Below are positions 35,344 to 36,328 of a stretch of 64,000 bases of DNA, piece after piece. The notes beneath the pieces were generated by a model. The model was not told the DNA's origin. It ran no database searches and worked only from the letters and a program-made list of their open reading frames with translations. Origin of the DNA: Pseudomonadota bacterium (GTDB lineage: Bacteria; Pseudomonadota; Gammaproteobacteria; Enterobacterales; Enterobacteriaceae); assembly GCA_018261615.1 (NCBI GenBank), contig JAGTSE010000017.1, forward strand, positions 2,239 through 66,238. Direction: 5' to 3'. Numbering within the stretch: position 1 is the first letter of the stretch; each line of letters begins with the position of its first letter. The position numbers were made by a program, and so were the translations under genes.

Positions 35344-35562
35344 ATGACCAAAAATGTAGTGGTAATACGCGCCGGTGGTAAGGTTGAAAATGTGACCGTG
35401 GAAGACAATGCTAAATCGGTCTCGTTCAAAAATGAGCAGAGCTCGTTTCTCGAAATCCCGATTGAACCCTGGGAGCTGGATGGCGAAACCTTCCTGGTTG
35501 CCCGTTTCTCTGATCTGGTGAGCCAACAGGAAACCGAACAGGCCATCCGGAAATTTTACTAA
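35344..35562 (+). CDS. Hypothetical 72-aa protein
   Basis: SD-like gaggt, natural composition, own terminator (accgcc-tgag-ggcggt plus U tract) directly after the stop. Confidence 0.75.
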   Translation: MTKNVVVIRAGGKVENVTVEDNAKSVSFKNEQSSFLEIPIEPWELDGETFLVARFSDLVSQQETEQAIRKFY

Positions 35563-35697
35563 TTGATGACCGCCTGAGGGCGGTTTTTTACGCCATGTCG
35601 CTGCCAGAATTGAACGTTAGCGTTTCGTGTAAATAGCGGAAAATAAAATGCGAGTAGTTTGTGCAGTTACCTGAATTATCACACAGTATTCAAAACA

Positions 35698-35726
35698 TAA
35701 AAATCAAAAGGGCCTCAACGAGGCCC
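35698..35726 (-). terminator. Intrinsic terminator after the zinc-finger ORF
   Basis: Minus strand GGGCCTC-GTT-GAGGCCC-TTTTGATTTTT. Confidence 0.7.
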
Positions 35727-35728
35727 AT

Positions 35729-35908
35729 TTACATTACTGGTTTTGGCCAGCGTCGTCGGCGCGGCATTGATATACAGGTTCTGGCCGTCAGTCTTGTTCC
35801 ACATACTGAGCAAATTGCGCCATGTGGCTGTTGCCGATCCTGGCAGAATGTAGTGAATAAAAACTTTTGGCTCCTGCAAACCGGGCACTGAAATTTGAGA
35901 CTAGGGAT
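35729..35908 (-). CDS. YmcF/YnfQ-like CxxC-x21-CxxC small protein (59 aa), apparent ATC start
   Basis: Manual translation IPSLKFQCPVCRSQKFLFTTFCQDRQQPHGAICSVCGTRLTARTCISMPRRRRWPKPVM; SD GGAGGGG before ATC; terminator after the stop. Confidence 0.65.
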   Translation of the reverse strand: MPSLKFQCPVCRSQKFLFTTFCQDRQQPHGAICSVCGTRLTARTCISMPRRRRWPKPVM

Positions 35909-36033
35909 AACCCCTCCGATCTGTGAAATGGAGATTTGACGTTAACACACTCTGATTGCGCTGAAAGATATATCCTCAATAATTTCAATAGTAAAACGTT
36001 TCGCTGACGCTTTTTTTATCGCCAGTTCAGCTT

Positions 36034-36068
36034 TGTTTAACCTTCATTGAGGCATTAACTGCTAGTTT
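36034..36068 (+). promoter_or_regulatory. PhoP-type promoter of mgrR
   Basis: TGTTTA-ACCTT-CATTGA 12 nt upstream of the -10 TAGTTT. Confidence 0.55.
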
Positions 36069-36073
36069 AGCCC

Positions 36074-36163
36074 GTACAGCGTTTACCCAACCCGTTGAGT
36101 GAACGTACAGAACAATACAAAAATATCCATGCAAGCATTGACCGCCTTACGGCGGTTTTTTTT
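36074..36163 (+). ncRNA. mgrR: MgrR small RNA
   Basis: 3' part TATCCATGCAAGCATTGACCGCC..GGCGGTTTTTTTT matches recalled MgrR; convergent with mgtS; 5' end approximate. Confidence 0.85.
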
Positions 36164-36170
36164 GGCATAA

Positions 36171-36209
36171 CGAAAAAGGCCCCTCACGCATTTACGCAAG
36201 GGGCCTTCC
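36171..36209 (-). terminator. mgtS terminator
   Basis: Minus strand AAGGCCCCT..AGGGGCCTTTTT. Confidence 0.7.
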
Positions 36210-36232
36210 CGGTGGGGGATTATCGCTATTCA

Positions 36233-36328
36233 TCAATCGTCCCATTTGTGACTAAAATAAGCAGCAAGGAATCCGGAAAAAAGAATCACTCCCAGTACTG
36301 CCATAAAGACATGCATGTTTGCCATCAT
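36233..36328 (-). CDS. mgtS: Mg2+-limitation small protein MgtS (YneM), 31 aa
   Basis: Manual translation MMANMHVFMAVLGVILFSGFLAAYFSHKWDD; SD GGAGG. Confidence 0.93.
   Translation of the reverse strand: MMANMHVFMAVLGVILFSGFLAAYFSHKWDD

Follow-up and report, generated by a model that had tools for sequence, protein, structure and literature searches.

Comparative analysis of the window (the whole 64,000-nt stretch of DNA that was analysed) indicates that positions 35908-35729 on its minus strand are a real, unannotated protein-coding gene. A zinc ribbon formed by two CxxC knuckles, with an arginine-rich tail after it, is predicted for the product, and by sequence the gene represents a new branch (subfamily) of the known YmcF/ECs_2282 family of small proteins. 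To the reading as a whole, i.e. a stand-alone monocistronic small-protein gene with an AUC or AUU start codon (AUY), a strong Shine-Dalgarno (SD) sequence and the mechanism proposed below, we assign a probability of roughly 0.8.

The coding sequence (35729..35908, minus strand) comprises 59 codons, beginning with ATC at 35908-35906, and a TAA stop codon at 35731-35729; its product of 59 residues can be written as (M/I)PSLKFQCPVCRSQKFLFTTFCQDRQQPHGAICSVCGTRLTARTCISMPRRRRWPKPVM. The initial annotation, made from the letters of the window, had proposed a hidden gene overlooked by the ORF track, and this frame is indeed absent from the default ORF list. The CPVC-x21-CSVC and PHGAIC motifs on which that proposal drew are both present in the product, with a spacing of exactly 21 residues between CPVC and CSVC. 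The knuckles are made up of Cys8/Cys11 and Cys33/Cys36, and the C-terminal tail is basic (RRRRWPK). The SD sequence GGAGGGG was found where it had been described (35911..35917, minus strand), ending 2 nt before ATC with its GGAGG core 4 nt before it. The terminator reported directly behind the gene was recovered by the terminator scan as GGGCCTCGTTGAGGCCC plus TTTTGATTTT (35700..35726, minus strand), an intrinsic terminator located just past the stop codon. The position of its hairpin is kept in all Kosakonia loci, and compensating changes are visible in the alignment. Upstream of ATC the frame is closed by TAA at 35944-35942 (minus strand). The 11 codons between this TAA and ATC read CGT CAA ATC TCC ATT TCA CAG ATC GGA GGG GTT, and those from ATC onward read ATC CCT AGT CTC AAA TTT CAG TGC, the last one encoding the first cysteine. 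Reading of these codons confirmed the claim that no ATG, GTG, TTG or CTG lies in frame between the upstream TAA and the first cysteine of the window gene. The comparison of loci shows the predicted promoter elements, SD, AUY codon, ORF and terminator to be a self-contained cassette under purifying selection.

Evidence for coding was obtained by a six-frame search of 61 related genomes, 20 of which belong to the same genus (Kosakonia). A full-length, stop-free match with 63-100% identity was found in 20/20 Kosakonia genomes. For these 20 orthologues the median pairwise dN/dS amounted to 0.12 (dS 1.1) in the gene frame vs 1.75 and 1.35 for the two alternative readings. Varying columns, sorted by codon position, numbered 48/58 at the third, 28 at the first and 22 at the second position, and third-position entropy reached 0.95 vs 0.34 and 0.29. 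Invariant among the 20 Kosakonia orthologues are the four knuckle cysteines, P9, H29, G30, A31 and the RRxRWPK tail.

Beyond Kosakonia, the scan combined pattern searches with tblastn on one genome per species. One of the two scan patterns included the leading isoleucine and is therefore biased, a bias of which the 61-genome six-frame search is free. Further members were found in Pseudescherichia (two copies per genome), Phytobacter, Yokenella, Enterobacter hormaechei, E. intestinihominis and Erwinia. The coding signature and the conserved frame recur in approximately 40 loci, i.e. beyond chance. Among 5,426 complete E. coli genomes the zinc-ribbon frame was unmatched, only the mgtS/mgtT part of the region giving matches, and the phage collection contained no match to the Kosakonia protein. 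A Kosakonia-type locus, with the zinc-ribbon gene beside mgrR and STnc100, was also seen in CP191473.1 ('Salmonella enterica strain s1', locus L048) and likewise in NZ_JBQPOM010000028.1 ('Vagococcus sp. WN89Y', locus L052). Both correspond to same-genus genomes of the species set, and their organism labels look wrong or the assemblies contaminated.

Verified AUC and AUU starts are very rare in bacteria, the E. coli examples being infC, pcnB and ymcF/ynfQ. Each of the 20 Kosakonia species has ATC or ATT as the codon that follows GGAGGGG-N2. Of 39 distinct loci, 23 have ATC and 16 have ATT at this codon, and none has ATG, GTG, TTG or ATA. The initial annotation had assumed a different near-cognate start from that of ymcF/ynfQ; the near-cognate part of this claim stands, while 'different' does not hold, since members of the subfamily use ATC and ATT interchangeably. 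It had also reasoned that ATG at this codon in close relatives would mean a strain-specific start loss, i.e. a pseudogene. The orthologues of the 20 Kosakonia genomes and of Pseudescherichia, Phytobacter, Yokenella, Enterobacter and Siccibacter carry ATC or ATT and never ATG, and no ATG occurs at that codon in the clade. All 37 non-Erwinia distinct loci, which come from at least six genera, have ATC or ATT at the start position. The two Erwinia loci among the 39 probably start at an in-frame ATG/TTG located four codons further upstream.

In three species (L014, L015 and L017) a TAA lies five codons upstream (TAA CAG ACC GGA GGG GTT ATC), so that no canonical start is possible and the ATC itself is the sole near-cognate codon on offer. 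An in-frame ATG, GTG or TTG before the first cysteine is absent in 32/40 loci; in the remaining ones the in-frame canonical starts are not conserved and are located at or upstream of the predicted promoter. RefSeq itself annotates the Siccibacter turicensis protein WP_414713447.1 from ATC. Taken across the loci, these comparisons identify AUY as the start codon of the subfamily. A third base restricted to pyrimidines could also be read as that of an ordinary internal isoleucine codon, a reading which is excluded solely by the upstream stops and by the lack of any other plausible start.

A maximum-likelihood tree of 38 distinct sequences was used to count changes at the third position of the start codon: there were at least eight between C and T and none to A or G. 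The four-fold sites G30, A31 and G37 of the same gene have undergone 10-13 changes involving all four bases. With approximately 37% purines at neutral sites, eight straight pyrimidines would be expected with p of about 0.01-0.03 according to our rough estimate. Since fMet is incorporated at any start codon, a change to ATG would leave the protein unaltered; that no such change is seen argues for selection acting on initiation as such. At the third position, the pyrimidine looks to be held by selection. Relatives outside the clade show that ATG is reachable. In a metagenomic relative (L104), an ATG AGT insertion separates GGAGGGGTT from the former ATC and puts ATG at an unchanged distance from the SD, and a Pseudocitrobacter protein (L105) has ATG at the isoleucine position and a five-codon extension with its own SD. 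The Leclercia and Mixta plasmid copies, also outside the clade, start with ATG.

The SD appears as GGAGGGG-N2 in 35/39 distinct loci and as GGAGGGA-N2 in one more. Its predicted duplex with the 3' end of 16S rRNA, computed with an assumed anti-SD sequence, reaches -12.3 kcal/mol, vs -4.0 for E. coli ymcF and -7.5 for ynfQ. Between GGAGG and AUC lie 4 nt, which is among the shortest spacings that function.

Alignment of the upstream regions showed almost no indels from -66 to the start codon across genera, and the promoter elements stand at a constant, indel-free distance from the start codon in the different genera. The motif TGnTAnnnT lies at exactly -39 in 33/39 distinct loci and at -38 in 2 more. 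In the window it is represented by TGTTAACGT (35939..35947, minus strand), assigned by consensus and conservation and preceded by T-R to give a TRTG motif. Within the -10 motif only TG, T-12, A-11 and T-7 are fixed, the interior bases being variable. We infer that this element is a sigma-70 extended -10 promoter. Transcription would start at approximately 35932-35929, 7-10 nt past the -10 hexamer, leaving a predicted 5' leader of about 21-24 nt (35909..35932, minus strand). A simple two-hexamer sigma-70 scan found no promoter at the locus, as expected since the putative promoter lacks a -35 element.

A palindrome, GATATATC, is situated 66 nt before the start codon (35967..35974, minus strand), at about -42..-35 from the predicted transcription start. 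It occupies exactly -66 in 30/39 distinct loci from several (at least five) genera and -65 in one more, and it moves together with the gene, being present at genomic locations that are unrelated to each other. Siccibacter (L103) has a different palindrome, TGTATACA, in its place at nearly this offset. The composite GATATATC-N17-21-TGnTAnnnT occurs once in its own genome, and no regulon is indicated because there is no second composite site in that genome. On inspection GATATATC does not fit as a sigma-70 -10 or -35 element or as a FliA, Fur, Zur or PhoP site. A possible leader helix pairing -15..-8 with codons 8-11 is unsupported: 92% of its cells were paired, and 230/500 shuffles did equally well, which gives no covariation. 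A candidate small GGG/CCC hairpin could place the start codon in its loop, and this too has no covariation support.

The initial annotation had placed the gene divergently from mgrR and without a csp gene, which agrees with the neighbourhood found. The mgrR gene is located at 36041-36239 (plus strand; Rfam STnc560, 79.6 bits), divergent from the zinc-ribbon gene. It is followed by mgtS at 36328-36233 (minus strand; NCBIfam equivalog, 77.8 bits), which has its own terminator. No csp gene is found upstream of the window gene, where mgrR (on the opposite strand) and mgtS are present instead. On the side away from mgrR lie dcp and STnc100. No ORF ends consistently near the start codon across loci, as would be seen for an upstream cistron; in Yokenella a csp gene is found approximately 220 nt upstream, yet the cassette retains its own promoter elements. 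The gene is fixed beside mgrR in Kosakonia and is found at unrelated sites in the other genera. Inspection of flanking ORFs gave no conserved neighbours outside Kosakonia, so no operon context is indicated. Control by PhoP via the PhoP box of mgrR was judged unlikely, as indels vary its distance to the cassette between Kosakonia species, and it is further disfavoured by the occurrence of the cassette without mgrR in other genera. Neither PhoP nor cold-shock control of the zinc-ribbon gene is indicated by the results obtained. A 72-codon ORF (MTKNVVVIRAGGKVENVTVEDNAKSV..., 35344-35562, plus strand), convergent with the zinc-ribbon gene, has no match in Pfam or NCBIfam and is followed by a terminator-like GC hairpin with a T run, seen by eye, at about 35566-35590.

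Homology searches with curated models placed the protein nearest to a known family of putative zinc-binding proteins. The NCBIfam model NF047912 ('ECs_2282 family putative zinc-binding protein') was the top match for 31/31 members, with profile positions 2-41 of 60 aligned and both knuckles covered. The shared pattern is K(F)xCPxC ... HGA(I/V)CxxCG. According to the curated HMMs, the window protein is nearer to ECs_2282 (27 bits) than to the Pfam YmcF-like family (15 bits). The Kosakonia/window protein scored 26.8-27.5 bits on NF047912, below the 37-bit cut-off, which is missed by all 31 subfamily members of alignment A2 and passed by the Siccibacter member with 38.8 bits. This protein, WP_414713447.1 (NF047912), has the same IPNLKF N-terminus, SD, extended -10 element and ATC start as the window subfamily, which identifies it by sequence as an already annotated member. 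The only core-type NF047912 member that was read (L029, 74 bits) differs from the window protein by an ATG start and a longer, helical basic tail. Core ECs_2282 members were found by tblastn in lambdoid phages, and the family also has chromosomal members. In the pL region of phage HK639 (NC_016158.1, 33888-34106; L108, 2501-2719, plus strand), an ECs_2282-like frame lies antisense to the hypothetical CDS HK639_45, and one of these two overlapping frames is probably mis-annotated.

A word-indexed protein search returned zero candidates for the window protein. This null result is incomplete, because an exhaustive HMM search of 1.84 billion representatives did find members, with 126 matches at E <= 0.001. 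Close matches were few, being either N-terminally mis-extended predictions, in which the SD is read as 'GG(A/V)IP', or the Siccibacter protein. The exact Kosakonia sequence was absent from a collection of 15 billion proteins. The gene has been missed by annotation because gene callers skip ATC/ATT and because the cut-off of the curated HMM is approximately 10 bits above its score. In one 611-nt ENA contig (P0024), a 77-residue prediction starts like an acyl carrier protein, continues as the C-terminal half of a K. cowanii-type zinc-ribbon protein and is most likely a chimera of assembly or gene calling.

The initial annotation had assigned the gene to the YmcF/YnfQ-like proteins, and this assignment is supported at the level of a distant relationship. 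A Kosakonia-only profile aligned with a 19-genus YmcF profile by hhalign with a probability of 94.8% (E 4.9e-8, 45 columns), with the start codons one residue apart, and the Erwinia members (…PHGANCIFCKS…) bridge window-type and YmcF-type sequences. On the Pfam model PF23641 (YmcF-like), the window protein scored 15.0-15.2 bits (E 0.026-0.029) and did not reach the gathering threshold of 27 bits; 25/31 subfamily members matched at E <= 0.1, the best E value among the 31 being 7.1e-14. The proteins YmcF and YnfQ were reportedly first described by D'Lima et al. in 2017 (J Proteome Res 16:3722). The E. coli features that the initial annotation gave for them agree with RefSeq K-12, in which ymcF (b4723) and ynfQ (b4724) are 62-codon genes with an ATT start, located 10 nt after the cspG and cspI stop codons. 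Both proteins have CPCC-x21-CIFC, with PLGAKC in YmcF. An older paper gave the name ynfQ to another ORF, of 37 residues, and YnfU is a zinc-knuckle protein distinct from these.

The window protein has in common with YmcF and YnfQ the predicted small zinc-ribbon type, with two CxxC knuckles 21 residues apart and (P)xGAxC before the second, and a predicted AUU/AUC start 6-7 codons before the first cysteine. Unlike ymcF and ynfQ, the window gene lacks an upstream csp gene, has its own predicted promoter and terminator and is preceded by a much stronger SD. The basic RRRRWPK tail stands in place of the acidic/neutral ...LDFRK tail of YmcF. Furthermore, the start in the YmcF family alternates with ATG in several genera, which is never the case in the clade of the window gene. 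Among YmcF-like loci of approximately 24 other Enterobacteriaceae genera (L073-L102), the homologous start is mostly ATT, ATC once and ATG in about nine genera. Several of the ATG-started YmcF-like copies retain ...TTTAAGG... just upstream, a motif typical of the csp stop. Besides the window gene, its own genome contains a true ymcF orthologue (G000:C1:98858-99034, plus strand; loci L004/L082), situated directly behind a csp gene (with a match to the Rfam cspA thermoregulator) and having an ATT start 9 nt past a TAA. This orthologue also has no canonical in-frame start. The same genome carries both a csp-coupled gene and a stand-alone AUY-started paralogue.

The AF2 model of the product (pLDDT 76.1) contains strands at 16-19, 30-33 and 39-41 and one short helix. 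Foldseek returned only generic zinc ribbons (TFIIS, RPB9, eIF2-beta and the N-terminus of NrdR, E 0.08-1), and a sequence search of the PDB gave nothing below E 0.16. The function remains a guess because the structural matches are generic zinc ribbons; by analogy with other small zinc-ribbon modulators, the protein might bind a macromolecular partner, either nucleic acid or a larger protein.

In the mechanism proposed, the sigma-70 extended -10 promoter would produce an mRNA whose leader is as short as about 24 nt and on which GGAGGGG would set the P site of the 30S subunit on AUC, where the initiator tRNA would start; AUY is taken here from the comparative data, and the biochemistry is presumed. 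AUC and AUU are near-cognate codons that are discriminated against by IF3, as established for infC. Because of this discrimination, the AUY start may keep output low and probably dependent on the state of the initiation machinery or on IF3 activity. The strong SD would replace the delivery by terminating ribosomes that the csp-linked ymcF and ynfQ appear to use, the third-base pyrimidine of the start codon would be maintained by selection, and transcription would end at the terminator past the stop codon. In evolutionary terms, the gene may have branched off, on the chromosome, from the YmcF/ECs_2282 superfamily, which is associated with phages and csp genes. The analogy with infC lies in a conserved AUU-class start combined with a good SD, so that output should vary inversely with IF3 activity. 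Unlike infC, which encodes IF3 itself, the window gene has a product with no functional link to IF3, and its codon is AUC as often as AUU. A physiological sensitivity of AUY output would fit the context dependence reported for AUU mRNAs, which involves temperature, nutrients and ppGpp (PMC5499595).

The gene may be real and start at AUY while the codon merely sets a low level of expression, for example of a protein harmful in excess, with no gating by IF3 or physiology. This is a possible alternative, although on the unlikely side. The exclusion of ATG fits plain selection for low output equally well, the SD is constitutively strong and the structured leader has no covariation support. However, a weaker SD or promoter would be a cheaper route to low output, and what is conserved here, in at least six genera, is the combination of a very strong SD with a near-cognate codon, a pairing that is also the established signature of the IF3-gated infC start.

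Translation by way of an upstream element, namely a short ORF from an ATG or GTG at -40 followed by re-initiation at AUY or by a frameshift, is considered improbable. Nearly all loci do have ATG or GTG at -40, the ORF starting there in the window ends at +8 and overlaps the start, and the csp-linked relatives lie 10 nt after a stop codon. Among species, however, the end of the -40 ORF ranges from -28 to +347, which leaves no conserved coupling geometry, and the ORF lacks an SD. The conserved letters at -40 are moreover the T-R-T-G-n of the extended -10 element followed by TAnnnT; as part of the promoter motif, they would be upstream of the transcript.

That a ymcF-like gene has become a start-loss pseudogene or a decaying relic, as suggested by the missing canonical start and the absence from annotation and from the word-indexed protein search, is extremely improbable given a frame intact in 20/20 species at dS above 1 with dN/dS of 0.12, the conservation of SD, promoter elements and terminator, and the absence of ATG at the start codon of any relative in the clade. 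It is equally improbable that the locus encodes a non-coding RNA, such as an sRNA divergent from mgrR, with an incidental frame: the unit is short, ends at a terminator of its own and lies in an intergenic region rich in sRNAs (mgrR, STnc100), but substitutions follow a three-base periodicity, a single frame has a dN/dS far below 1, the Cys, Pro, His and Gly residues of the zinc knuckles do not vary, and there is no Rfam match on this strand and no covariation in the candidate helix. The intact frame, the dN/dS of 0.12 and the invariant residues together exclude both of these readings for the coding part, beside which an additional role at the RNA level is conceivable.

Within the preferred reading of a stand-alone AUY-started gene, a further and rather doubtful proposal is that AUY has evolved as a gate without an upstream cistron, the protein being made only when initiation proofreading is relaxed, with GATATATC as the operator of a dedicated regulator. 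The strong, closely spaced SD would hold the 30S subunit on a codon that is normally rejected by IF3, and proofreading might be relaxed by, e.g., a low IF3:30S ratio, immature ribosomes or particular stresses. The regulator acting at GATATATC could possibly be the basic-tailed zinc-ribbon protein itself. If this proposal were true, the cassette would amount to a portable and self-contained device for sensing the fidelity of translation initiation, and csp coupling would not be what preserves AUY starts in the YmcF superfamily.

The finding points to a blind spot of annotation, through which a core gene of a whole genus has been missed; a model of the subfamily would recover the gene in Kosakonia, Pseudescherichia, Phytobacter, Enterobacter and others. 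The approximately 37 diverged loci that keep AUY form a natural replicate set, in which the third base behaves as a two-fold site with ATG one mutation away. The retention of AUY, while side branches gained ATG by insertion or extension, is an argument that selection can favour a near-cognate start as such. A rare start kept without a csp gene directly upstream also bears on views of how ymcF and ynfQ work.
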